Positions 4,999-57,780 of a DNA stretch of 64,000 nt are shown here, in pieces. The notes under the pieces were generated by a model, which saw nothing but the letters and a program-made list of their open reading frames with translations, did not search any database and was not told the origin of the DNA. The DNA lies in contig JBDRCU010000037.1 of assembly GCA_043821485.1 (NCBI GenBank), forward strand, positions 28,746 to 92,745, in the 5' to 3' direction. A program made the position numbers and the translations under genes. Each line of letters starts with the position of its first letter. The first letter of the stretch is position 1. This DNA is from Parcubacteria group bacterium. GTDB taxonomy: Bacteria > Patescibacteriota > Minisyncoccia > 2-02-FULL-40-12 > IGHO2-01-FULL-4-A.

Positions 4999-5217
4999 AT
5001 GGATGCATTTACGATTATTCAAACCTCCCTTGCTATCCTTTTGATAGTAACTATATTACTACAGCAAAAAGGCGCAGGCATGGGCGGTGCGATAGGAGGC
5101 GCTGGTTCAGAAGCAGGTTTTTCAACACGACGCGGTACAGAAAAAACGGTATTCACCGCAAGTATTATTATTGGTATTCTCTTTTTTGCTTTTTCTGTAA
5201 CTAGACTACTTCTATAG
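4999..5217 (+). CDS. secG: Preprotein translocase subunit SecG
   Basis: The 72-aa product has two TM segments joined by a Gly-rich loop, LLQQKGAGMGGAIGGAGSEAGFSTRRG. Confidence 0.7.
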   Translation: MDAFTIIQTSLAILLIVTILLQQKGAGMGGAIGGAGSEAGFSTRRGTEKTVFTASIIIGILFFAFSVTRLLL

Positions 5218-5262
5218 GTTCCTCTTTTGATATGCATAACTCCTAGTTACGCATTTTAATTT

Positions 5263-7101
5263 ATGTCTGCTTACGACTTCAAACAATTAGATAATTTTTT
5301 CACCGGTAAAAACAAAGATAAAATTATATCTGGGAAATTTCATTTCATAACAAAACACTTCCCTACCAAAAAACAATTCCTGTACTTACCGAAGGTTCTT
5401 TCCCAAAAAGAAAGATACGCACTGCTTGCATCCATACTCGTAGCAGTCATTGCACTAATAACAATTCCCGTATGTGCCTACTACCACTTTACAGAACCAA
5501 CTCCTACCCATGGGGGGTCTTTCACCGAAGGCATCCTTGGAGAACCGCAAAACATTAATCCTTTACTCATCAATACAAGAGAGGTAGACACCGATCTTGT
5601 CCGATTAATATATTCCGGATTAGTCAGACTAGATGACAAAGGAAACATCCATCCTGGATTGGCAGAATCCTATACCATTTCAGATAGCGGTCTTGAATAC
5701 ACCTTCAATCTTCGACAGGATGCATTATGGCATGACGGTACTCCTGTTACAGCTGATGATATAGTATTCACTATACTCACGGTGCAAAATCTCGATGTTG
5801 ACAGTCCTCAAAGACTCAATTGGCAAGGAGTGGACGTTGAAAAAATTGACGAACAAACAATCAAATTAACTCTAAAAAACCCTCTTGCCCAATTCATCTA
5901 TACAACAACCATGGGAATTCTCCCTAAGCATGTATGGGAATCTGTATCTGCAGAAAATTTCAAAAGCACGAATCTGAATATCGAAGCAATAGGCTCAGGC
6001 CCTTATCGAATTAATGATATCGGACGAGGTGGAGGAGGAAGTGTTACTTCTATGACATTATCTTCATTCAGAAACTACTATTTAGAAGGGCCGTATATAG
6101 CAAAAATAGAGTTACATTTTTTTACGTCGCTTGATGATATGATATCAGCATATAATTCTGGCAAGATAGATACGATCGAGTTGCCTCTGCAAAGACGTCT
6201 TAGCGATCTTAATATCTCACAAAGATCAAAGATACAAACCGTAGACCAACACAGCTATTTCACTGTATTCTTTAACGAAAACCAAAATGAGATCTTTGCC
6301 GAAGATGACATACGTCTGGCATTGAATTATGGTACAGATAAACAAGCCATAATTGATACAGAACTTCTAGGACATGGCAGTGTTGTGGATTCTCCCTTAC
6401 TCCCTAAAATAACTGGAATAGAAAAACCTGAAAATATTTATCCTTACGATCAATCCCTTGGAATACATCTCCTTGAAAAAAATAACTGGAATATTTCCGG
6501 AGACCAAAAGATTCGTGAAAGGCTGAACGAATCCACAGAAGACGTCGAACAACTTTCCATAAAGCTAACCACACTCAATATGCTTGGCCTGCCGGAAGTA
6601 GCAGGAGAACTCAAATCCCAATGGGAAGAACTGGGATTCTCCGTCACAATAGAAACTCTATCAATACCCGAAATTCAAAAAGTAATTCAAGAACGAGACT
6701 TTGAGGCATTCCTATTCGGTGAAGTTATCCCCCTTGGATTAAACCAATTCAGTTTCTGGCATTCATCACAATCTCGATCCCCCGGTCTGAATATAGCCCT
6801 CTATGACAATCCCAGCGTAGACAAACTTCTTGAAGAAGCTAGGAGAACCATGGACGAGGTTAAACGCCTTGAAAAATACAATGAAATACAAAATATAATT
6901 ATTGGGGACGCTCCCGTAGTATTCCTATACAGCCCCAAGTACCTGTATATACAGCCTTCTGCCATAAAAAATGGTGAAATAACAGTAATCAATACTTCTC
7001 CTGATAGATTCAATGATATCCATGAATGGTACATAGAAACCAAGCGCATAAGGCCTACGGCAGACAAAACAACCCCTACTCCATCTCAAGACTTGCAATA
7101 A
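5263..7101 (+). CDS. ABC transporter substrate-binding protein, family 5 (peptide/nickel, OppA/DppA-like), membrane anchored
   Basis: An N-terminal TM anchor is followed by a conserved SBP_bac_5-like N-lobe, ILGEPQNINPLL...YSGLVRLDDKGNIHPGLAESY...WHDGTPVTADDIVFT. Confidence 0.78.
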   Translation: MSAYDFKQLDNFFTGKNKDKIISGKFHFITKHFPTKKQFLYLPKVLSQKERYALLASILVAVIALITIPVCAYYHFTEPTPTHGGSFTEGILGEPQNINPLLINTREVDTDLVRLIYSGLVRLDDKGNIHPGLAESYTISDSGLEYTFNLRQDALWHDGTPVTADDIVFTILTVQNLDVDSPQRLNWQGVDVEKIDEQTIKLTLKNPLAQFIYTTTMGILPKHVWESVSAENFKSTNLNIEAIGSGPYRINDIGRGGGGSVTSMTLSSFRNYYLEGPYIAKIELHFFTSLDDMISAYNSGKIDTIELPLQRRLSDLNISQRSKIQTVDQHSYFTVFFNENQNEIFAEDDIRLALNYGTDKQAIIDTELLGHGSVVDSPLLPKITGIEKPENIYPYDQSLGIHLLEKNNWNISGDQKIRERLNESTEDVEQLSIKLTTLNMLGLPEVAGELKSQWEELGFSVTIETLSIPEIQKVIQERDFEAFLFGEVIPLGLNQFSFWHSSQSRSPGLNIALYDNPSVDKLLEEARRTMDEVKRLEKYNEIQNIIIGDAPVVFLYSPKYLYIQPSAIKNGEITVINTSPDRFNDIHEWYIETKRIRPTADKTTPTPSQDLQ

Positions 7102-7202: not shown

Positions 7203-7286
7203 GCCCGGGTGGTGGAATTGGCAGACACGCAGCGTTCAGAACGCTGTGAGCGCAAGCTCATGCGAGTTCGAGTCTCGCCTCGGGCA
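7203..7286 (+). tRNA. tRNA-Leu (anticodon CAG), type II
   Basis: The acceptor GCCCGGG/CTCGGGC has one G-U pair. The anticodon stem CAGCG/CGCTG carries a TTCAGAA loop. There is a long variable arm and a GCGAGTTCGAGTCTCGC T-arm. No CCA is encoded. Confidence 0.85.
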
Positions 7287-7372
7287 CAGCACTCTAAACT
7301 AGATATTAATTAATAGGACTCTCTCATCTGGCTCATATCAAATGTGCCAAGTGCAAATGTCCAAACTAAAGA

Positions 7373-9319
7373 ATGACAGGAAATAAATCGAAAGCACGCG
7401 TCCAGCTGGACGCAGAACCGGTCGAACCTAAAGAAGGAATCAAAAAAAATACATCCAGACGCAGACATATTCGCAGATCATCGAGTCCGTCTTCGCATGT
7501 AAAAGATACAATAAGGACTGCTCGCAGTGAATCCCAGACATCTCCGCGCAGAGCAACTCGCAAAGGACCTCGCCTGCGAGACAATCGCCGGCCTCCAAGC
7601 GGACTTAAACAATTAGTCCGGCTCAAACGTAAAACCAAAGATACTGCAGAAGGCTATGACGATTCACTAAAATATACTCCTCTGGGAGGTCTCGGTGAAA
7701 TCGGACGAAATATGGCTGTACTAGAATACAAGGATGAGATACTTCTCATTGATGCTGGTTTTGGTTTTCCAGAAAATGACCAACCCGGAATTGATTACAA
7801 TATTCCGAACATCAATTATCTAAAGGGTAAAGAGAAAAAAATTCAGGCACTTCTGATAACTCATGGTCACTATGATCACATTGGCGCACTCCCTTACATA
7901 ATGGACAAAATCGGCAATCCACCGATCTACTCATCACGGCTTACGGGAGCAATCGTAAAAAAACGCCATCTGGAATTCCCCCATCTTCCAGAGCTTGATA
8001 TAACAGAGGTTGACCACAAAGACACTATTAAGGTTGGCCAGTACTTTGAAATAGAATTTGTGCATGTTAATCACAATATGCCTGAAGACTTAGCTATGTA
8101 CATCAAAACTCCTGCAGGAACCATATTCCATACAAGTGATTTTAAATTTGATCCAACACCTCTTAATGAAGCTCCTACAGATATCGAATATCTTAAAGAA
8201 GTTGGAAAACGCGGAATCACATTACTTTTGTCTGATTCAACTGGAGCAGAAAAGCCTGGCGAATCAATATCAGAATCAGAAATTAGCAAAAACTTGGAAG
8301 AAATATACAAAACAGCCAAAGGCAGAATCATAGCGGCAACATTCGCATCCCTGATAAACCGTGTCCAACAAATGATTACATTGTCCGAAAAATATGGAAG
8401 AAAAGTAATCATAGATGGCTATAGTATGAAAAGTAATATAGAAATAATGAAAGAGCTTGGAGAAATCAGAATGAAAAAAGATACCCAAATCACTCCTGAC
8501 CAAATAGACAATTATCCCGACAATCAGATAATGGTAATTGGAACAGGTGCGCAAGGAGAAGAACGCGCTGTTATGATGCGCATTGCTTCTGGCGAACATA
8601 GACACGTAAGACTCCGCGCCGAAGATACTGTAATATTTTCATCTTCCGTAATTCCGGGGAATGAACGAACTGTACAGCGCTTACAGGATTTACTCTATAG
8701 AATGGATGTAAATGTATTCCATTATCAAATGATGGACATCCATGCAGGTGGTCATGCACTTCAGGATGATTTGAGAAAAATGATACAAATAATGAAGCCT
8801 AAATTCTTCATGCCTATTCACGGATATTATTCAATGATGGTTGTTCATGGCAGATTGGCACAGGAAGAAGGTATAAGCAAAGATAATGTACTCATTCCTG
8901 ACAATGGAAATATTATCCATATAACACCTAATGAATGGTGGTACGACAAGAAATCCGCAGAAATAGAGAACATCATGGTAGATGGTCTGGGCGTTGGAGA
9001 TGTCGGCAATGTTGTCATTCGAGACAGACAAGTACTTGCAGAAGAAGGCATGTTTGTAATCATTTCTCTAATCAATGGCCGAACAGGTGCAGTACAAGGA
9101 AGCCCTGATATCATTTCACGCGGATTTGTCTATCTTAAAGATAATAAGGAACTTCTGACAGAAGTACGCAACAAGGTTAAAGAGATTGTAAAGAAAACCA
9201 CCACAAGACCAATCAATACAACTGATCTCAAAAATAGTATCCGTGAAGAAATTGGTTTATTCCTTTTCAAAAAGACAGAACGACGTCCGATGATATTGCC
9301 TGTCGTGATAGAAGTGTAA
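7373..9319 (+). CDS. rnj: Ribonuclease J (metallo-beta-lactamase / beta-CASP) with an N-terminal Arg/Ser-rich extension of about 100 aa
   Basis: The core starts LKYTPLGGLGEIGRNMAVLEY and carries the zinc-binding motif HGHYDHIG. Confidence 0.88.
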   Translation: MTGNKSKARVQLDAEPVEPKEGIKKNTSRRRHIRRSSSPSSHVKDTIRTARSESQTSPRRATRKGPRLRDNRRPPSGLKQLVRLKRKTKDTAEGYDDSLKYTPLGGLGEIGRNMAVLEYKDEILLIDAGFGFPENDQPGIDYNIPNINYLKGKEKKIQALLITHGHYDHIGALPYIMDKIGNPPIYSSRLTGAIVKKRHLEFPHLPELDITEVDHKDTIKVGQYFEIEFVHVNHNMPEDLAMYIKTPAGTIFHTSDFKFDPTPLNEAPTDIEYLKEVGKRGITLLLSDSTGAEKPGESISESEISKNLEEIYKTAKGRIIAATFASLINRVQQMITLSEKYGRKVIIDGYSMKSNIEIMKELGEIRMKKDTQITPDQIDNYPDNQIMVIGTGAQGEERAVMMRIASGEHRHVRLRAEDTVIFSSSVIPGNERTVQRLQDLLYRMDVNVFHYQMMDIHAGGHALQDDLRKMIQIMKPKFFMPIHGYYSMMVVHGRLAQEEGISKDNVLIPDNGNIIHITPNEWWYDKKSAEIENIMVDGLGVGDVGNVVIRDRQVLAEEGMFVIISLINGRTGAVQGSPDIISRGFVYLKDNKELLTEVRNKVKEIVKKTTTRPINTTDLKNSIREEIGLFLFKKTERRPMILPVVIEV

Positions 9320-11272: not shown

Positions 11273-11671
11273 CTATGGAGGCAGGATATCCAATAAAACA
11301 TCCTGAGCCAAGGGGCCTGATACTCTGACAGCATGACCAGTCCTGATCGGCTGACCTTCGGGAGATTTCACCATATCGTATGGCGAGATTTTCATCTGGA
11401 CTCGACAGGTCTCGTCTCCCAGAAGGATCTCCACGCAAATAGCGCCCTTCGATTCCCTGACTTCAAGGGTAAGGTTGCGCTCCCCGGACCCAAAGCCTGC
11501 ACTATGAAGCTCTAGGCCCTGACCCACGATTCGCACAGGAACCACGACTCTGGAGCACCCCTTAATGATACCTGTGACGGACTCTTTTCTCTCTCCTCCT
11601 CCCCCGTCGAAAGTACGTACTTCCGGCTCCTTGGGCCCTTTTGTGATGACGCTCTTCCTTGCTTCAGTCAT
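11273..11671 (-). CDS. Hypothetical protein (132 aa) in GC-rich island A, with a possible small beta-barrel/OB-like fold
   Basis: The ATG is at 11671 (MTEARKSV...), 6 nt downstream of a GGAGG Shine-Dalgarno site, and the gene has its own terminator. GC content is far above background. The longer in-frame upstream extension would overlap trpS and lacks a Shine-Dalgarno site. Confidence 0.55.
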   Translation of the reverse strand: MTEARKSVITKGPKEPEVRTFDGGGGERKESVTGIIKGCSRVVVPVRIVGQGLELHSAGFGSGERNLTLEVRESKGAICVEILLGDETCRVQMKISPYDMVKSPEGQPIRTGHAVRVSGPLAQDVLLDILPP

Positions 11672-13001: not shown

Positions 13002-13496
13002 ATGAAGTACAAGCTTCTCGTATCCGTGTTCGCGCTCCTGGCGGCTTCGCTACTGATGGCTGGGTGCGGTGGCAGTGGACCGACTAACTCCCTGGTCCAG
13101 CAGACCGTGCAGTCGGTCAGGATCGTAATGCCTGTTGACAGGGCGACGAGCCAAGAATCTCCGCCCGGACTGAGGAGCAACGGCTACACAAGCTTCTTGG
13201 TGGAAACAAAGGGTCATACCAACAGCCCGACTCTTCAGGCTTTCTTCGAGGAATGGTCTGCTATCGAAGGGGAGCCTCTATCTCTGACAGCGCACTTCAA
13301 AGACCTCGAGATACAGAACAACACACCTTCCCCCTCCGCGAACTGGAAGGTTATACCCCCGCAAGATTGGCCCAAAGCGACGCTCACCCGGCTATACATC
13401 TCGGTTCAACCTAAAGATCCCCGGACTGGCGATGGAGTAGGCGGAGATTACATCTGGGTCTATATCAACGGGCTCCCCACTGATCCGGCTGGCTAA
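13002..13496 (+). CDS. Putative lipoprotein (164 aa) in GC-rich island B
   Basis: The product starts MKYKLLVSVFALLAASLLMAGC, a signal peptide with an LMAGC lipobox. The RBS context is AAGGAGACAGACGATG. GC content is high. Confidence 0.65.
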   Translation: MKYKLLVSVFALLAASLLMAGCGGSGPTNSLVQQTVQSVRIVMPVDRATSQESPPGLRSNGYTSFLVETKGHTNSPTLQAFFEEWSAIEGEPLSLTAHFKDLEIQNNTPSPSANWKVIPPQDWPKATLTRLYISVQPKDPRTGDGVGGDYIWVYINGLPTDPAG

Positions 13497-19190: not shown

Positions 19191-20150
19191 ATGCAACTTG
19201 GAATCGTCGGCCTGCCTAATGTGGGTAAATCCACATTATTCCAGGCCCTGACAAACAAAGAAATTGATATATCGAATTATCCTTTTACTACAATAGATCC
19301 AAATGTAGGTATTGTTACTGTTCCGGATGAAAGACTTGAAAAGCTAACCGAATTATCTAACTCGAAAAAAACCATCCCAACAGCAATTGAATTTGTAGAT
19401 ATTGCAGGGCTTGTAAAAGGCGCTGCAGATGGAGAAGGCCTTGGTAATCAATTTTTGGCCAATATTCGCGAGGTGGATGCAATCGTACATGTTGTACGCG
19501 CTTTTGTGGATGAGGATATCACACATGTCCATAATACAATCGATCCTGCAAATGATATTGAAATAATTGAAATCGAACTAGGATTAGCAGATATGCAAAC
19601 CAAGGAAGCCCGTGAAAAGAAGAGGGACAAAAAGGACATCCCTCCCCTAGAACTCCTCACCGATAAAAAAATCATTTACGCCCTGAATGTTTCAGAAAAA
19701 CAATTAAAGGATGGCTGGAAACCAGATGAAAAAATATTAAAAGCTATGAAAGGAAGCGACTACGTCGTCGTATCCAATACATTTGAACTCCTTCTCTCCA
19801 AGTCTGATTCCGAAGAAAAGAAAGAATATTTAGCAGACATGGGGATTGAACAGTCTGGTTTGGATGAACTAATACAAAAGTGTTACCACACACTCGGACT
19901 AATAACTTTCTTAACTACAGGAGAAGACGAAACACGTGCATGGACCGCAAAGAAGGGAGATCTTATCCCCTATGCAGTTAGTGCTATACATACAGATTTT
20001 GAACGTCTATTTATCCGCGCAGATGTTATTAACTGGGAAGAATTAATAAAAATAGGTTCATGGAGTAAAGCAAGAAACTTAGGGAAAATAAAAACAGTCG
20101 GCAAAGACTATGTCATTAATGAAGGCGATGTTGTGGAAGTGAAGATATAA
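19191..20150 (+). CDS. ychF: Ribosome-binding ATPase YchF (Obg-like GTPase family)
   Basis: The N-terminus is MQLGIVGLPNVGKSTLFQALT...NYPFTTIDPNVG (G1/G2 motifs). A C-terminal TGS-like domain is present. Confidence 0.9.
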   Translation: MQLGIVGLPNVGKSTLFQALTNKEIDISNYPFTTIDPNVGIVTVPDERLEKLTELSNSKKTIPTAIEFVDIAGLVKGAADGEGLGNQFLANIREVDAIVHVVRAFVDEDITHVHNTIDPANDIEIIEIELGLADMQTKEAREKKRDKKDIPPLELLTDKKIIYALNVSEKQLKDGWKPDEKILKAMKGSDYVVVSNTFELLLSKSDSEEKKEYLADMGIEQSGLDELIQKCYHTLGLITFLTTGEDETRAWTAKKGDLIPYAVSAIHTDFERLFIRADVINWEELIKIGSWSKARNLGKIKTVGKDYVINEGDVVEVKI

Positions 20151-20160
20151 AAAGAGGAAA

Positions 20161-20195
20161 GCTCGCAGAGGAGCATTCCTACCACTCCTGCGAGC
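20161..20195. terminator. Stem-loop (GCTCGCAGAGGAG...CTCCTGCGAGC) immediately after ychF, probably a bidirectional terminator
   Basis: The inverted repeat was read directly. On the minus strand it is followed by a T-rich tract, so it would serve the minus-strand island-C gene. Confidence 0.5.
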
Positions 20196-20225
20196 AAGGA
20201 AAGAACAATAATAGGATACTGATTT

Positions 20226-20477
20226 CTACCTTCTTTCTACCGGCTCCACGGATTTCACCGTCCGCGACAAGAAGGACTTTTTCCTGTTGTCGATTTCGAC
20301 CTGCAGACTTTCTGAATTTGTCATACGGGGATTCAGTTCGTCAGGCACTTCGATCGCGACCAGTTCGCGTGAACTGAACGGACTTTCTTCGCCCTCTGTA
20401 ATCGGCCTACATCCTACCTTCCTGAGTTCTTCAGGAAAATCACTAGGAGCAATCGGATGCAACGTAACCCTATACAT
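20226..20477 (-). CDS. Small hypothetical protein (83 aa) in GC-rich island C
   Basis: The ATG follows a GAGGAGGGGATCAGA Shine-Dalgarno context. The product starts MYRVTLHPIAPSDFPEELRK. A hairpin lies downstream. Confidence 0.45.
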   Translation of the reverse strand: MYRVTLHPIAPSDFPEELRKVGCRPITEGEESPFSSRELVAIEVPDELNPRMTNSESLQVEIDNRKKSFLSRTVKSVEPVERR

Positions 20478-20551
20478 TCTGATCCCCTCCTCTCAACTCT
20501 TTGATAACGGATCCCTCAGAAAAGAAACTATCCTATTATCTCAAACGTCCT

Positions 20552-20586
20552 CCAAAAACGCAAGAAGCCCCGGGGGAGGGCTTCTT
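20552..20586 (-). terminator. Rho-independent terminator between the two island-C genes
   Basis: On the minus strand the hairpin AAGAAGCCC-loop-GGGCTTCTT is followed by GCGTTTTT. Confidence 0.55.
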
Positions 20587-20619
20587 GGCCTTCCTCCTCC
20601 GGAGCTACTGGAACTGGAC

Positions 20620-20886
20620 TCAGATCTTCGTGGAAGTCCTGAGCTTTGGGGGAATCTTGTCTAATCCCTTCTTGGGAACCGAGTACAAAGGTGGTACCTT
20701 CTTACAACCCTTAATTCGTATCACGGGTTTCAGTCCTGCGAACGCTCCTCTCGGCTCTGCTTCTCCTCTTGCTTTCCCCAAAGCAATTGCTGAAGCCTCG
20801 GCAGAAGAAAAACCCTCCTGACGAACCTTGCGATTTTCCCCTCCTATGGAGAGGGTAACTTCAAAAATCCCCGAGGAATGACTCAT
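20620..20886 (-). CDS. Small hypothetical protein (88 aa) in GC-rich island C
   Basis: The start is taken at the second ATG (MSHSSGIFEVTLSIGG...), which follows a GGGAGGA Shine-Dalgarno site with 8-nt spacing. The product is a small, possibly alpha/beta protein with a Lys/Pro-rich C-terminal tail. Confidence 0.45.
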   Translation of the reverse strand: MSHSSGIFEVTLSIGGENRKVRQEGFSSAEASAIALGKARGEAEPRGAFAGLKPVIRIKGCKKVPPLYSVPKKGLDKIPPKLRTSTKI

Positions 20887-20958
20887 GATGCCTGATCCTC
20901 CCATTCGGTAGATATCTCAATTATTCCATAAAAAAAAGATCCCGTCTTTCCACAGGTG

Positions 20959-21807
20959 TTAATATCCAAAAAGTTTCAGTTTCTTCTCAATCATTTCCTT
21001 TGTTGCTTCAACTGCTGGTTTTGCAAATTCGTAAGGCGTGGCAGACTCATCATCTTTGGCTAATTCTTCTTCCATTGCATCATGATATGCGATGCGTAGT
21101 TCAGTATTTACATGGACATTGGTTACTCCATGAGCAATTGCTGCTTCGACTTCTTCATCAGACAAGCCCGATCCCCCATGAAGTACGATATGTACATCAG
21201 GAACAACTTCACGAATAGATCTTAAAACATCAATATCTAAATGCATTGTCTGATCTGTTGTAATCCCATGCACATTCCCGAATGCAATTGCCAAACGATC
21301 GATCCCTGTTTTTTCGACAAATTCTTCTGCTTCCTTAGGTTTAGTGTAATCTTCGTGAAAAATTTCAACTTTTTCCTGAACTTTCGAACTTCCGCGCAGA
21401 TATCCCAGCTCCCCTTCAACCATCATGTCTGGATTTTTAGACTTTGCATATTTGACAACTTCTTTTGTAAGTTCAATATTACGTTCAAAAGGCAGAGCTG
21501 ATGCATCAATATGTATTGTGTCATAACCCGCATCCACCGCTCTTGTTGCGGTTTGCCAACCTTTATGATGATCTGCATTAAGAAAAATCGGATGGCCTGC
21601 TTCTTGATATGATTTAACCAAAGCCACAGCCTGATTGTAACCAACAAACAATGCTTCATTTTCAGAAGTAGCAACCATGAGCGGCGATCCGAGTTCTTTA
21701 GCAGTCTCAACAAAAGCCTTTAATTGATCTGCAAATGAAAAATTAAAATGACCGATGGCCCAATGCTCGTCTCTCGCTTGTTTAAAATATTCTTTTAGGG
21801 ATTTCAT
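20959..21807 (-). CDS. fba: Class II ketose-bisphosphate aldolase (fructose-/tagatose-bisphosphate aldolase family)
   Basis: The product starts MKSLKEYFKQARDEHWAIGHFNF and contains ...NADHH... and ...HGGSG... motifs typical of class II aldolases. Confidence 0.82.
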   Translation of the reverse strand: MKSLKEYFKQARDEHWAIGHFNFSFADQLKAFVETAKELGSPLMVATSENEALFVGYNQAVALVKSYQEAGHPIFLNADHHKGWQTATRAVDAGYDTIHIDASALPFERNIELTKEVVKYAKSKNPDMMVEGELGYLRGSSKVQEKVEIFHEDYTKPKEAEEFVEKTGIDRLAIAFGNVHGITTDQTMHLDIDVLRSIREVVPDVHIVLHGGSGLSDEEVEAAIAHGVTNVHVNTELRIAYHDAMEEELAKDDESATPYEFAKPAVEATKEMIEKKLKLFGY

Positions 21808-23057: not shown

Positions 23058-23220
23058 ATTTAAATTATACCTTAAAAACCTGATAAAAAGGAGCTAATAT
23101 TAGACCATGCTTGTGCTGTCTTGACAATGTATATTAGAAGTGATATATATAGATTATCGTGAACAACGTATTAATCTCCTTCTAACTCCTGGCTCGTCTG
23201 AGCTGGGGAAAGGAACAGAG

Positions 23221-23346
23221 ATGCATCGTAACAAGGATCGGGGCCTACGAGCCCCCAAGAATAAGAGGACATTGAACCACAGTTTCAACCACATCGGCAC
23301 CGCCAACATCGCCACCGACGCCAGCGCCGGCCACCTGTCCGGCTGA
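23221..23346 (+). CDS. Candidate micro-ORF (41 aa) in GC-rich island D
   Basis: ATG preceded by AAAGGAACAGAG. The peptide is MHRNKDRGLRAPKNKRTLNHSFNHIGTANIATDASAGHLSG. A second 11-codon ORF, MHPRPQIRGPP, starts at about 23,388 with an AGAAGGAGACGACG-ATG context. Coding status is uncertain. Confidence 0.3.
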   Translation: MHRNKDRGLRAPKNKRTLNHSFNHIGTANIATDASAGHLSG

Positions 23347-23432
23347 GACAGCAGCCGCGCACGGCAGAAGGAGACGACGATGCACCCGCGACCGCAGATC
23401 AGGGGTCCCCCGTAGGATCCCACGTTCTCCCC

Positions 23433-23467
23433 GGGGCCGCCCCAGAAAGGCGGCCCTTTCACTTTTA
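23433..23467 (+). terminator. Rho-independent terminator (GGGGCCGCC-CCAGAAA-GGCGGCCC then TTTCACTTTT)
   Basis: The hairpin and T tract were read directly. The element is oriented for the plus strand at the end of island D. Confidence 0.55.
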
Positions 23468-29568: not shown

Positions 29569-30108
29569 CTATCCCTGGAAGGTTTCAGTTGCCGCGCCAT
29601 TGGCATTGGGCCAGCGGCGCTTGAAAAGTATCGGAACGAGGATCCTGACGGGGACCTTATGTAAGGCACCCTCCAGCCACAGGATTACCTTGAGTCCTGG
29701 GAAGAAGTGATTCAGACGCTCACAGCAAGTCTGACACAAGTTGGCGACATGGATATCTCCAGTCTGCTTCTTTCTGTGAACTGTCACCAACGTTACCGGT
29801 TTCCCGTTCCTCTTAGCAGCACAGTGCATGAGCCCCACTTCGGCACAGCTCGAGGACTGACCTATGGGAGTATCGAGTTGGAGACCATCGAACTCATTGC
29901 CCTGGCTGTCGACGCTAAGCGCGTACAGCTGGTGAAAGCCATGCTGGTAATATCCCTCCAGTGCAGCCTTGGCCCGTTCGACAAGTCTCTCATCTTCCCT
30001 GGTCATCGGCTCTTCAAACTTCAGAATCATCTGGACGTGTGCACTGTGGCATATCGTTTCCAGCTTTTGCCACTCTTCTTGGTCTGGTTTGTCGGGTTTC
30101 TCGCCCAT
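29569..30108 (-). CDS. Cytidine/deoxycytidylate deaminase-fold protein (tetrameric CDA / blasticidin-S deaminase-like) in GC-rich island E
   Basis: Zinc ligand motifs SCAEV (CxE) and CQTCC (CxxC) are present. Their spacing, and the flanking pattern AKAAL..Y..GFHQLYAL...G......TP, match the homotetrameric cytidine deaminase pattern. The ATG at 30108 follows an AAGGGAG Shine-Dalgarno site. Confidence 0.7.
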   Translation of the reverse strand: MGEKPDKPDQEEWQKLETICHSAHVQMILKFEEPMTREDERLVERAKAALEGYYQHGFHQLYALSVDSQGNEFDGLQLDTPIGQSSSCAEVGLMHCAAKRNGKPVTLVTVHRKKQTGDIHVANLCQTCCERLNHFFPGLKVILWLEGALHKVPVRILVPILFKRRWPNANGAATETFQG

Positions 30109-45724: not shown

Positions 45725-46387
45725 ATGCGTTACGCGGGCCTATTCCTGTTGGTGGTCGCCATCATGGCGACCCTCACAATCAACTCCGAACCCGCCTTCG
45801 CCGGAGACCTGTTCGACAGGATCCTTAGCGAGGGCTTGGCTGGCACCGATCGAGACCACGTCGTCACGACTGCCCGCCAGACGATCCGCGAGGACAGCGA
45901 CATCCGTGACCCCGGAACAACTGGAAGCATCTACGAAGGGGTCGACATCACAAACAAGGTACTTGGAAATCCTTACGGTGGCGGGGGAACCAAGGGAACG
46001 CTAACCCGCCTAGGTGGAGCTGGACTGTTCTACTTCCTGGACAGTACGGGTCGCATTCGACATCCGAGTCATACACGTCAATCGGCGGATGTCGTCAAGC
46101 AGATCGAAGCCAAACCCGATACCGTGACCCGACCGACACCGGACCCAAGCATGGAGTGGTCTCTCAACAACGTGACGACCGACAAAACCATGGTCGTCTA
46201 CTACCAGAACGAGATGCTCTTCGTGCTCAACGGCGGAGAGTCGAACTTCCATGCGATTCCTCTGAGCTGGAACTCCACCCGCTTCAGGGCGGAGATCCTG
46301 GAACAGGATCCATCGACTGGCGCCCTTGTTCGCAGTGCTGCGACCAGAACGGCCACCGGAAGCTACGGCTTCAACTTCTCCGACTAG
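45725..46387 (+). CDS. Hypothetical secreted protein (220 aa) in GC-rich island F
   Basis: A signal peptide MRYAGLFLLVVAIMATLTINSEPAFAG is present. The RBS context is GAGGAGAAAGGTC. GC content is high. Confidence 0.6.
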   Translation: MRYAGLFLLVVAIMATLTINSEPAFAGDLFDRILSEGLAGTDRDHVVTTARQTIREDSDIRDPGTTGSIYEGVDITNKVLGNPYGGGGTKGTLTRLGGAGLFYFLDSTGRIRHPSHTRQSADVVKQIEAKPDTVTRPTPDPSMEWSLNNVTTDKTMVVYYQNEMLFVLNGGESNFHAIPLSWNSTRFRAEILEQDPSTGALVRSAATRTATGSYGFNFSD

Positions 46388-46462: not shown

Positions 46463-46694
46463 ATAAAACCCTTGACTTACCTAGGTCATTCTAATACACT
46501 GTATGGGTACTATGAATTAACACAAAACATACATCTTCATAGCATTTATGAAGGCTCGGGATTGTCCCTCAATGGGATGGTCCCGAGTCTTTAATGACAG
46601 AACATTAACAACTTTACAGCCAACGATACGTATATTCGTATCGTTAACTAGATCAATGAAAGATAGTTTGAGTAAATCTCAACTATTCTTATAA

Positions 46695-46734
<40 letters not shown>

Positions 46735-48113
46735 GATAAGGCATGCAAGTCGAACGGGCAATCTTCGGATTGTCAGTGGCGAACGAGTTAGTAACGCCTT
46801 GGTACCTACCCTATACTCAAGAATAACTCCGAGAAATCGGAGCTAATACTTGATAGTCTCGAAAGAGTAAAGATTTATCGGTATAGGAGGGGCCTAGGTC
46901 CTATCAGCTTGTTGGTGAGGTAACGGCTCACCAAGGCTATGACGGGTAGGGGATGTGAGAGCATGATCCCCAACGAGGGAACTGAGAACGGTCCTTACAC
47001 CTACGGGTGGCCGCAGTCGAGAATATTGGACAATGCGCGAAAGCGTGATCCAGCGACGCCGCGTGCAGGAAGAAGGCCTTCGGGTTGTAAACTGCTTTTA
47101 TGTGGGAAGAATTTTGACGGTACCACAAGAATAAGGGGCTGCTAACTTCGTGCCAGCAGCAGCGGTAATACGAAGGCCCCAAGCGTTATCCGGAATTATT
47201 GGGCGTAAAGGGCAGGTAGCCGGTTGGTATAGTCTGATGTTAAATCTCATGGCTCAACTATGAGACCGCATCAGAAACGTATCAGCTAGAGCAAGTCAGA
47301 GGCATACGGAACGTGCGGTGTAGGGGTGAAATCCGTTGATATCGCACGGAACACCAAAAGCGAAGGCAGTATGCTGGGGCTTTGCTGACGGTCAACTGCG
47401 AAAGCGTGGGGATAGAAAAGGATTAGATACCCTTGTATTCCACGCCCTAAACGATCCAGACTAGCTATCGGGAGCATCGACCCTCCCGGTGGCGAAGCTA
47501 ACGCGTTAAGTCTGGCGCCTGGGAAGTACGATCGCAAGATTAAAACTCAAAGGAATAGGCGGGGATTCGCACAAGCGGTGGATCGCGTGGTTTAATTCGA
47601 TACAAAGCGAAGAACCTCACCAAGGTTAGACATCATAGTGAAAGCCTTCTGAAAAGTTGGCCCCTTTTATAGCACTATGACAGGTGGTGCACGGCTGTCG
47701 TCAGCTCGTCGAGTGATCGGTTCTCTTAAGTGAGGAAACGAGCGCAACCCCTGTCGTCTGTTACAAGTGTCAGACGATACTGCCTGGGATAACCAGGAGG
47801 AAGGAGGGGATGACGTCAAGTCAGCGTGTCCTTTGATACCTTGGGCTACACACGCGATACAATGGGTGTTAACAATGGGTTGCCAAACCGCGAGGTGGAG
47901 CTAATCCCATCAAATGCGCCCTCAGTTCGGATAGGAGGCTGAAACTTGCCTCCTTGAAGTTGGAATCGCTAGTAATCGCAGATCAGAATGCTGCGGTGAA
48001 TACGTTCTCGAATCTTGCACTCACTGCCCGTCACATCAGGGAAGCCGGAAATACCCAAAGCACCATAAATTCTAATGGTACTACGGTAGGTTCGGTAACA
48101 AGGATGAAGTCGT

Positions 48114-49017
48114 AGAGATTAAGAAATAAAATTTGCGACCTGTCAAGAGTAATCTGGCAGAAAAACCCGACTAATATCGGTGAAACCTAAATCTTAAAAT
48201 GTTATAATTAAGATATGGTAATACCGAGGAAAGCTAGGAGAATCACATATTCAACTGAAATAAGAGAGCTAAAAAAGAGACTAAAACTAGATGAGTCACA
48301 AAAGGCTATAGTGATAGGCAGTATATTGGGCGATGCAACATTAGAGCTCAATTGGTCAAAAACCAACTGCCGAATGAGAATTGATCATTCTATAAAACAA
48401 GAGGATTACGTACGACTAAAGTATACAATCCTCAAGGACTGGGTACTTACTGAACCTAAATACTACAAGCCTCATAGGTCCATATGGTTCCGAACAATAA
48501 GTCATCCCAACCTTACTGAACTATGGAAAATATTCTACAAGAACAAGAAAAAAATTATACCAGAAAATATAGCTGAACTAATCCAAAACCCCCTTACTGT
48601 TGCAACATGGTTTATGGATGATGGTAATGTACGAAGACGAAATTCACGTATAATTTCCTACGACCTCAATACTCAATCGTTCACATACGCAGAAAATGAA
48701 AAACTTCTGAACGCCTTGAAAACGGTCTATGGAATATCTTGCAGTCTACATAAAAATCATAACAGACATAGAATATATATCGGTACCAATGAAAAAAATA
48801 AATTCCAAAAGATAATACGTAAATTATCAACACCATCTCTTAAATACAAACTTCAGTGAATATGTGATTCTCTTGGCCCCGTAGAGACTTCTCGTACTCT
48901 GGCCCCATAGCAGAACGAGGGATAGCTGTACGTAGACAGCTATAATACGTCGGCCCCAGTTATTAAAAACTGGGTGAAGATATAGTCCATGCTCGTGGAA
49001 ACACGGGAATAAACATG
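48114..49017 (+). other. Intervening sequence (probable group I intron) in the 16S rRNA at an E. coli ~1506-equivalent site
   Basis: Exon 1 ends ...GAAGTCGT and exon 2 starts AACAAGGCACGG, which restores the universal GAAGTCGTAACAAGG. A U precedes the 5' splice site and the intron ends in G. The boundaries are approximate, within a few nt. Confidence 0.6.
48215..48859 (+). CDS. Intron-encoded double-motif LAGLIDADG homing endonuclease
   Basis: Motif 1 is IVIGSILGDATLE. Motif 2 is TVATWFMDDGNV. The ORF lies wholly inside the 16S insertion. Confidence 0.85.
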   Translation: MVIPRKARRITYSTEIRELKKRLKLDESQKAIVIGSILGDATLELNWSKTNCRMRIDHSIKQEDYVRLKYTILKDWVLTEPKYYKPHRSIWFRTISHPNLTELWKIFYKNKKKIIPENIAELIQNPLTVATWFMDDGNVRRRNSRIISYDLNTQSFTYAENEKLLNALKTVYGISCSLHKNHNRHRIYIGTNEKNKFQKIIRKLSTPSLKYKLQ

Positions 49018-49261
49018 AACAAGGCACGGCTAGGAGAACCTGGTCGTGGATCACCTCCTTTCTATACAAAAACTCCTGCTTTATGCAGGTGCTGTATAGA
49101 AACATTAGGTGTCGATATAGGTTGTGCGAGGTTTGTTCGTCGATAGACAAGCACCTCGTACAAACTAAGGCTGGCTGATACAGCCCAATCTATCAGCGTT
49201 TGATGCTACCGAAAAGCACACTATCTAGTTAATGATACAAATAGACGTATAAACTCTAAAC

Positions 49262-56699: not shown

Positions 56700-56772
56700 G
56701 GGCGTGTAGCTCAGCGGTAGTAGCGCGTCACTGATAATGACGAGGCCGCAGGTTCGATCCCTGCCACGCCCA
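56700..56772 (+). tRNA. tRNA-Ile (anticodon GAT)
   Basis: The acceptor is GGGCGTG/CACGCCC. The anticodon stem CGTCA/TGACG carries a CTGATAA loop. The T-arm is GCAGGTTCGATCCCTGC. Confidence 0.85.
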
Positions 56773-56841
56773 CCGCGAAAACAACAATCTTTATTGATTG
56801 TTGTTTTTGTTTATTTAACGTCATGCTATACTAAAATAACT

Positions 56842-57639
56842 ATGCTTAAAAAAACCACAAGACCAAAACCAAGTACAAAAGAAATGCGTGAAGGAAAATT
56901 TAATCTACCTGCTTCCAAACTTCAGCTCATAGAAGAAGACGCTCCAACAAGAGATTTTCGCTCTTCATTTCACTGGAGAGTATTTCGTATAATGGCTGAA
57001 TTTGTTGATGGCTGGCAATTCCTTGCAGATTTTAAACGATCCGTAACATTCTTTGGTTCAGCACGATTTAAACCCGAAAGTCCATGGTACCAGCAAGCTC
57101 GTGAACTCGCTAGCAAGTTAGCTGACGATGGTTTTGATGTCATTACAGGCGGAGGCCCGGGTATCATGGAAGCTGCAAACCAAGGAGCGCATGAGTCTCA
57201 CACTAATTCTCTTGGATTAATTGAAGACGACAGAAGAGGAGATTCAAGGGGCGATTCAATAGGATTAAACATCAGATTGCCATTCGAACAACGTATTAAT
57301 AAATATGTTGAGAAAGCAGTTGCCTTCCATTATTTCTTTGTACGAAAAGTAATGCTTACATATTATGCACAAGCCTACATCTATTTCCCCGGAGGATTTG
57401 GAACTCTGGACGAAGCATTTGAAGTTATAACCTTGGTACAAACAAAAAAGATACCTCGCATACCTATCGTATTTGTTGGCAAAGGCTACTGGGGGAAACT
57501 GGATGACTTTATGAAAAATACAGTATATGGCGAATACAAAGCAATAGACAAGGGAGATATGGACATTTATACCATTGTTGACACAGTTGAAGATGCCTAC
57601 AAGATTATAAAAAAATCCCCGCCAAGAAAGGTTTTCTGA
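56842..57639 (+). CDS. LOG-family protein (cytokinin riboside 5'-monophosphate phosphoribohydrolase-like; TIGR00730)
   Basis: The motifs VTFFGSAR and GGGPGIMEAANQGA are present. The start is taken at the ATG at 56842 to avoid overlap with tRNA-Ile. Confidence 0.8.
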   Translation: MLKKTTRPKPSTKEMREGKFNLPASKLQLIEEDAPTRDFRSSFHWRVFRIMAEFVDGWQFLADFKRSVTFFGSARFKPESPWYQQARELASKLADDGFDVITGGGPGIMEAANQGAHESHTNSLGLIEDDRRGDSRGDSIGLNIRLPFEQRINKYVEKAVAFHYFFVRKVMLTYYAQAYIYFPGGFGTLDEAFEVITLVQTKKIPRIPIVFVGKGYWGKLDDFMKNTVYGEYKAIDKGDMDIYTIVDTVEDAYKIIKKSPPRKVF

Positions 57640-57705
57640 TATCAAAAGCTTCCCCAAAAACTCAAAATGTGTTATAACATAAGACGCCCATAAAACATCT
57701 TATTA

Positions 57706-57778
57706 GGGCCCGTAGCTCAGTTGGTAGAGCGCCTCACTTGCACTGAGGAGGCCGGGGGTTCGAATCCTCTCGGGTCCA
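57706..57778 (+). tRNA. tRNA-Ala (anticodon TGC), with the G3:U70 identity pair
   Basis: The acceptor is GGGCCCG/CGGGTCC. The anticodon stem CCTCA/TGAGG carries a CTTGCAC loop. A TTCGAAT T-loop is present. Confidence 0.85.
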
Positions 57779-57780
57779 CG

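Follow-up and report, generated by a model that had tools for sequence, protein, structure and literature searches.

The window analyzed here is a stretch of 64,000 nt from a Parcubacteria-group metagenome-assembled genome, with a guanine-plus-cytosine (GC) content of 0.397. Within it, the convergent genes for a class II fructose-bisphosphate aldolase and for ychF flank ~780 nt (~20155-20930), here called island C, with a GC content of ~0.50. An earlier note on this DNA had remarked on the higher GC content and had described two tandem minus-strand open reading frames (ORFs) of 88 and 83 aa, C1 and C2, each with its own Shine-Dalgarno (SD) site and terminator. The difference in composition was borne out, and both ORFs were found where the note had placed them (Table 1). 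A weak terminator hairpin is the end of the aldolase gene and the upstream border of island C. From there, each unit comprises a leader, a strong SD, an ATG, an ORF, and a terminator, and this anatomy is statistically non-random.

Both C1 and C2 have a ribosome-binding site at the proper spacing before the start of a long ORF. On the minus strand of the island, the motif GGAGG is enriched ~10-fold (7 of 60 in the window), and there are exactly two SD + ATG sites on this strand, each followed by an ORF that is 83 codons or longer. When the island was shuffled 5000 times, the combination of an SD, an ATG, and an ORF of at least 80 codons arose with a mean of 0.011, compared to the two observed, giving P(>=2) = 0.0004. 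These data, together with those on SD use given below, lead us to favor, with moderate confidence, the reading that C1 and C2 are orphan genes for small proteins, independent of each other and carried on accessory, foreign-type DNA, that are translated by SD-dependent initiation. As we envisage it, the minus strand of the island would be transcribed as two separate units of one gene each, every unit having a short leader and its own terminator around a small ORF led by a strong SD and an ATG; both ORFs would be translated, and the DNA that carries them would be of foreign or recent origin.

The C1 and C2 units

The source annotation lists C1 as a hypothetical protein of 94 aa, ABH833_02320, that starts at 20904. 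The SD GGGAGGA, which the earlier note had reported and which we recovered, belongs to the start at 20886 and forms a duplex with the 16S 3′ tail of -12.2 kcal/mol; the duplex for the annotated start is -3.7 kcal/mol. We therefore prefer the start at 20886 and consider that the annotated one is probably 6 codons too long. The C-terminal 43 residues of C1 (isoelectric point [pI] 10.3) make up a Lys/Pro-rich tail, as had been noted, with a charge of +10.7. This tail is disordered in the AlphaFold model, while the N-terminal 45 residues are predicted to form a beta-hairpin and a helix (residues 6-43). Through its basic Lys/Pro tail, C1 may bind nucleic acid. The suggestion that C1 has a dodecin/SpoVS-like character found no backing: Pfam and NCBIfam gave no match at E <= 10, no PDB sequence matched below E ~1, and Foldseek against PDB, run with a model whose predicted local distance difference test (pLDDT) score is 55.9, returned a best E of 0.81, with neither family among the 50 matches listed. 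The terminator said to lie between C1 and C2 is present, within the 142-nt spacer that separates the two genes.

C2 (pI 5.4) is preceded by an extended SD, again at the position given in the earlier note, whose duplex with the 16S 3′ tail, at -21.4 kcal/mol, was the strongest measured in the set of 47 native genes and six island ORFs. Its protein is predicted to be mainly coil, with a single helix at residues 55-72. The C2 terminator hairpin (~-20 kcal/mol) lies 11 nt past the ychF stop. The note had described it as shared with ychF; the position holds, but the U tract is found solely on the minus-strand side, so that the hairpin serves C2 more than ychF. No signal peptide or transmembrane segment was predicted for C1 or for C2, and the predictions describe the two as small, soluble proteins of the cytoplasm that are disordered over much of their length. 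Start-site accessibility in the predicted transcripts gave no consistent signal (92nd percentile for C1, 45th for C2).

Table 1. Positions of island C features, of its flanking genes, and of the other GC-rich island ORFs in the window
Feature	Position	Strand	Details
ychF	19191..20150	+	flanks island C; convergent with aldolase gene
C2 terminator hairpin	20145..20195	-	stem 20195..20161, then UUUCCUCUUUUUAUAU, overlapping ychF stop codon
ORF C2	20477..20226	-	83 aa
C2 SD	20492..20479	-	extended, GAGGAGGGGATCAG; immediately 5′ of ATG at 20477
C2 -10 box	20535..20543	-	putative, extended, TGAGATAAT
Inverted repeat around C2 unit	20208-20218, 20529-20539		perfect, 11 nt, ATAATAGGATA / TATCCTATTAT
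C1 intrinsic terminator	20553..20587	-	CAAGAAGCCC-loop-GGGCTTCTTG, then CGTTTTT; stem 20587..20561, 11 pairs, T run
ORF C1	20886..20620	-	88 aa; 94-aa version from 20904
C1 SD	20902..20896	-	GGGAGGA; 9 nt 5′ of ATG at 20886
TTGAGATA	20920..20913	-	3′ of putative C1 -10 box; same word also 5′ of C2
C1 -10 box	20920..20928	-	putative, extended, TGGAATAAT
Hairpin at aldolase gene end	20941..20956	-	weak terminator, 5 pairs, then ATCTTTTTTT (T8 run)
Aldolase gene (class II)	20959..21807	-	flanks island C
Plus-strand ORF	20287..20664	+	125 aa
Plus-strand ORF	20501..20821	+	106 aa
Island ORF 11671-	11273-11671	-	132 aa
Island ORF 13002+	13002-13496	+	164 aa; lipoprotein signal LLMAGC
Island ORF 30108-	29569-30108	-	179 aa; CAE...CxxC; blasticidin-S deaminase in PDB, E = 8e-4
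Island ORF 45725+	45725-46387	+	220 aa; signal peptide; GC at third codon positions 0.71; codon-position chi2 58

The two units also have upstream words in common. GGATCAG occurs in both SD contexts, as the earlier note had stated, and TTGAGATA, whose frequency across the window is at chance level, lies upstream of both genes. The extended -10 boxes were read from the sequence and are putative. The perfect inverted repeat flanks the C2 unit exactly. We considered a miniature inverted-repeat transposable element, or another inverted-repeat element, around C2 and rejected it: the repeat is absent elsewhere in the window, and its frequency is near the chance expectation. No second copy of island C was found within the window, and the island had no match in phage or plasmid collections, so that it does not look like a mobile element (miniature inverted-repeat transposable element, insertion sequence, or prophage remnant).

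Coding signal, homologues, and folding of the island

A number of results weigh against two small protein genes. ORF length by itself is at chance level: a dinucleotide-shuffled island contains on average 1.45 open stretches that reach 83 codons or more, and in the real island it is the plus strand that has the two longest frames (149 and 112 codons). A native codon model gave an in-frame advantage per codon of 0.017 for C1 and 0.004 for C2, compared to 0.23-0.30 for native genes. The nucleotide-by-codon-position chi-squared statistic (chi2) was 9.2 for C1 and 9.1 for C2, which is not significant against ORFs drawn from shuffles (P ~0.16); native 85-codon chunks have a median of 20.5, and the other island genes, at 10-43 on the same scale, show C1 and C2 to be slightly weaker. 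G1-G2 spoke for coding in that, at 0.14 (C1) and 0.13 (C2), it exceeded the 95th percentile of shuffle-drawn ORFs (P ~0.02), but it also flagged one plus-strand ORF and is hence nonspecific. Four internal SD-like motifs lie within C1, and a convincing sigma-70 promoter was looked for and not found. The AlphaFold single-sequence models are of low confidence for both C1 (pLDDT 55.9, predicted template modeling score [pTM] 0.39) and C2 (pLDDT 64.9, pTM 0.25). C2 is uncalled in the source annotation, as judged from the locus tags inferred from gene order (ychF 02315, C1 02320), which leave no gap for it, and it is not in the protein collection searched.

The homologue searches add to these points. 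C1 and C2 were compared with 5.8 billion proteins and with PDB sequences, and C2 also with 1.84 billion representatives; at the nucleotide level, phage and plasmid collections were searched by DNA and tblastn, along with viral and metagenome contigs. The 5.8 billion proteins held no relative of C1 besides its own record, ABH833_02320 (the 94-aa form, 100% identical, on a 126-kb contig), and neither protein collection held a relative of C2. Neither protein had a match in the PDB sequences or in the phage, plasmid, viral, and metagenome contigs. Pfam, NCBIfam, PHROGs, and PADLOC gave no match for C1, C2, or the two plus-strand ORFs.

Two further candidates were tried and dropped. A codon model was trained on the remaining island genes, but it scored every stop-free frame as in frame and was for this reason uninformative. 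C1 and C2 as tandem paralogues gave an alignment at the level of shuffles (P = 0.17-0.4 for protein, 0.36 for DNA); the two do have short collinear motifs in common ([FY]xVTL and FSSxExxAI), plus the upstream words.

The frame lengths bear on a different reading, in which the plus-strand ORFs of 125 and 106 aa that lie past the end of ychF would be the real genes. No other open frames of the island are as long, and a relative, L093, also has a ychF-strand ORF (127 aa) at this junction. The two plus-strand ORFs have TTG starts only and no SD, however, and they overlap each other, traverse the C1 terminator hairpin and the C1-C2 spacer, are absent from the annotation, show no similarity to the L093 ORF, and have codon-position chi2 values of 6.1 and 6.5. 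We give this reading next to no credence.

GC-rich islands in genomes rich in adenine plus thymine (AT-rich) are a classic sign of structured RNA, and the GC-rich stretch here matches the presumed transcribed region. The island could specify structured non-coding RNA, as one molecule or two (~375 and ~390 nt), with a terminator at the end of each and the ORFs as by-products of GC-richness; the chance-level ORF lengths would agree with this. The predicted fold of the whole island (786 nt) was in excess of expectation (z = -2.98), and the halves gave z = -2.1 and -2.2; for comparison, a 16S segment gave z = -2.0 and coding controls ~0. When the terminators were removed, however, each half fell to z = -1.15, so that the excess appears to be due mostly to the terminators. 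In a cmscan of both the island and the entire window against Rfam 15, neither the gathering thresholds nor a cutoff of E <= 10 brought up a family for the island, and what matches there were stood at chance level. Structured RNAs would also leave unexplained the two optimally spaced strong SD + ATG sites, each opening the longest minus-strand frame (P = 4e-4). We judge RNA genes to be an unlikely account of the island.

A variable junction between aldolase and ychF

We then compared the locus in relatives. The nearest aldolase relatives are 63-72% identical, and among genome contigs the relatives of YchF reach at most 54% identity by best segment, which revealed no close genome. The block of PfkB, a 417-aa protein, and aldolase is kept in the relatives, and what follows aldolase varies. 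In L081 and L083 it is rplY (L25). In L095, convergent ychF comes directly after aldolase and the junction is empty, while in L089 a 76-aa ORF with an SD of -17.8 kcal/mol precedes the convergent ychF. The 127-aa ORF of L093 is led by an SD of -15.4, lies on the same strand as ychF, and is followed by ychF and a Mur ligase gene, like the window. L087 has a small SD-led ORF (-15.5), cut by the contig end, and L084 a 105-aa Lys/Glu-rich ORF without an SD. The aldolase/ychF junction is thus kept in L089, L093, and L095, with differing content, and the native genes of the relatives compared have weak SD sites. This variation indicates an old junction that has repeatedly hosted different, lineage-specific, mostly strong-SD orphan ORFs, and island C is lineage-specific accessory DNA at this variable site, where aldolase and ychF converge.

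Homology of C1 or C2 to the post-aldolase ORFs of L084, L087, L089, and L093 was considered and rejected, as BLASTP found none and the best shuffle P was 0.05-0.1. By eye, the beta-hairpin/helix pattern of C1 recalls the L084 and L087 ORFs, a resemblance that is not significant. A remnant of L25 was also discounted, as tblastn detected nothing resembling L25 in either the island or the window.

The relatives also inform on whether C1 and C2 could be a coupled module, that is, a toxin-antitoxin pair or the effector-immunity pair raised in the earlier note, with acidic C2 neutralizing basic C1. The two genes are adjacent on the same strand, encode proteins of opposite net charge, share the upstream words GGATCAG and TTGAGATA, and are accessory and strain-specific. 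Such modules are normally co-transcribed, whereas here a strong terminator and the 142-nt spacer stand between the genes; in addition, PADLOC, PHROGs, and Pfam gave no match, neither protein has a predicted secretion signal or transmembrane segment, and the relatives hold a single unrelated ORF or none at the junction. We regard coupling of C1 and C2 as very unlikely.

A more serious contender, though still improbable in our view, is that the island is nonfunctional DNA, namely, recently acquired or decaying foreign cassettes whose ORFs, SDs, and terminators derive from the donor and are still intact but not selected here. C1 and C2 are singleton sequences without relatives, their site varies freely in relatives and is empty in L095, their composition and codon usage are unadapted to the host, and their codon-position periodicity is weak; the internal SD-like motifs in C1 fit as well. 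On the other side, both ORFs are intact from an SD-led ATG through a stop just 5′ of a terminator, and the window carries six such cassettes in 64 kb, all of them intact. Small streamlined genomes usually lose useless DNA fast, which also speaks against inert cassettes. We retain two small-protein genes as the favored reading of island C.

Several observations concern the surroundings of this junction. In L093, a GC-rich stretch encoding Arg/Gly/Ala-rich sequence (~5130-5355) is fused 5′ of the true YchF start (MLSIGIVGLPN) within the called 440-aa "YchF", from which it follows that GC-rich islands beside ychF are not unique to the window genome. YchF of the window has 319 aa, and relatives align to all 319 residues over 1035-1104 nt (~345-368 aa); from these alignment lengths, the window copy seems to have lost up to ~50 residues from its interior. 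The GC-richest island of the window (up to 0.73 over 150 nt) occupies 23149-23464, in the interval that separates the PfkB-family kinase gene from the 417-aa gene, and has no SD-led ORF, no Pfam match, and no Rfam match. The same intergenic position is also GC-enriched in L081 (0.44) and L083 (0.49), and each of these stretches starts with a terminator hairpin. We consider 23149-23464 a candidate non-coding RNA or a candidate further variable spot.

SD use in the window and comparison with known systems

To place the SDs of C1 and C2, we surveyed 47 AT-rich native genes of the window for a 5-mer SD in the -18..-3 region and found it in none. The duplex energy of the native genes with the 16S tail had a median of -3.5 kcal/mol, and 5 of the 47 reached -8 kcal/mol. 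A TATAAT-like box ending 4-12 nt 5′ of the start was present in 13 of these genes, compared to 7% of all ATGs, so that a large share of native genes look leaderless (examples of native starts are 1619+, 11759+, 23057-, 26526-, 31512-, and 50608+). The 16S gene retains the anti-SD, ending in GGATCACCTCCTTTCT at ~49052. The survey of native genes suggests widespread leaderless or SD-independent initiation among them although the 16S keeps its anti-SD. As the native genes are without SDs and often leaderless, initiation at the island ORFs would rely on SD/16S pairing and would depend on the intact CACCUCCUUUC tail of the 16S rRNA.

The window has at least six orphan ORFs that are GC-rich and SD-led, a class that C1 and C2 fit. 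Every GC-rich island with an ORF opens that ORF with a strong SD, and the six ORFs have duplex energies of -9.7 to -21.4 kcal/mol. The other four have a GC content of 0.54-0.58, a terminator-like hairpin downstream of each, and no Pfam match. Three of these four are annotated as hypothetical, and those three are singletons among 15 billion proteins. From the features listed in Table 1, 45725+, 13002+, and 30108- look like real proteins. In this genome, with its SD-less, partly leaderless native genes, the strong SDs are those of the accessory orphan ORFs, and within the clade a strong SD could serve as an easy means of picking out genes that are accessory or newly acquired. For the annotation, C2 is likely a missing small gene, and the C1 start is probably off by six codons.

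Some features of the RNA genes of the window should be recorded here. The 16S gene (46689-49065) has a ~900-nt insertion at 48144-49030, after ...GAAGTCGTA, that carries a 214-aa ORF (48215..48859), and Rfam placed the 16S end at 48143, before the insertion. No 23S rRNA was detected within the window. Genes for tRNA-Ile(GAT) and tRNA-Ala(TGC) occur at 56700-57779, ~7.6 kb downstream of the 16S 3′ end and not directly adjacent to it; between them is a 300-aa ORF (56737..57639) with a PGGFGTLDE motif that is LOG/lysine-decarboxylase-like in appearance. Directly after tRNA-Leu (7203-7287), the long ORF of an RNase J-like gene (7373..9319) begins with ~110 aa (7373-7722) that are GC-rich at the DNA level, very basic, and of low complexity. 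This segment may extend the N terminus of the protein, or the ORF may be drawn too long and run over another GC-rich island.

Island C can be compared with four kinds of known systems. Structured RNAs that stand out by GC-richness in AT-rich genomes comprise tRNA, rRNA, and large non-coding RNAs from GC-rich intergenic screens. Island C resembles them as a GC-rich intergenic stretch between terminators with a modest predicted fold excess, but differs in having no Rfam family, an excess that appears to lie mostly in the terminators, and SD-led ORFs. Parcubacteria with reduced SD use are a second case: of the 16S genes of Parcubacteria, only 48% were found to carry an anti-SD motif (PMC9297842). 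The window is alike in that its native genes are essentially SD-free, and different in that the anti-SD is retained and a minority of ORFs is SD-led.

A third comparison is with rpsU (bS21) of Flavobacteriales, whose strong SD is a rarity in a lineage that otherwise makes no use of this signal; the gene is translated when the anti-SD is free (PMC7797042, PMC9976891, PMC13000453). Here, too, the 16S anti-SD is kept, native genes lack SDs, and a few genes stand out by the strength or extension of their SD. Neither C1 nor C2 is bS21 (no Pfam match), however, and both are GC-rich and accessory instead of core. The resemblance lies in the pattern of SD use only and does not imply the mechanism, anti-SD sequestration, for Parcubacteria. 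By analogy, one could imagine two initiation modes, with core genes leaderless or SD-independent and GC-rich, SD-led orphan minigenes, C1 and C2 among them, translated only when the anti-SD tail is available, an idea that we hold to be doubtful. Were it true, the islands would be a separately gated accessory regulon, possibly for host interaction, resembling the bS21/anti-SD switch. The strong-SD orphan ORFs at this junction in L087, L089, and L093 suggest that such a pattern would extend across the clade and would not be peculiar to a single genome. The pattern in any case raises the question of selective SD-dependent initiation in Patescibacteria.

Finally, island C is like the ORFan "hypothetical protein" genes of accessory islands in Patescibacteria, or the candidate phyla radiation (CPR), which are small, lack homologues, have an atypical composition, and sit in variable intergenic spots; one of the two genes here, C1, is already annotated as a hypothetical protein. 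It is common for CPR genomes to have orphan hypothetical genes at variable sites. C1 and C2 differ from them in that C2 is unannotated and in that both genes have strong extended SDs in a genome whose native genes lack SDs.

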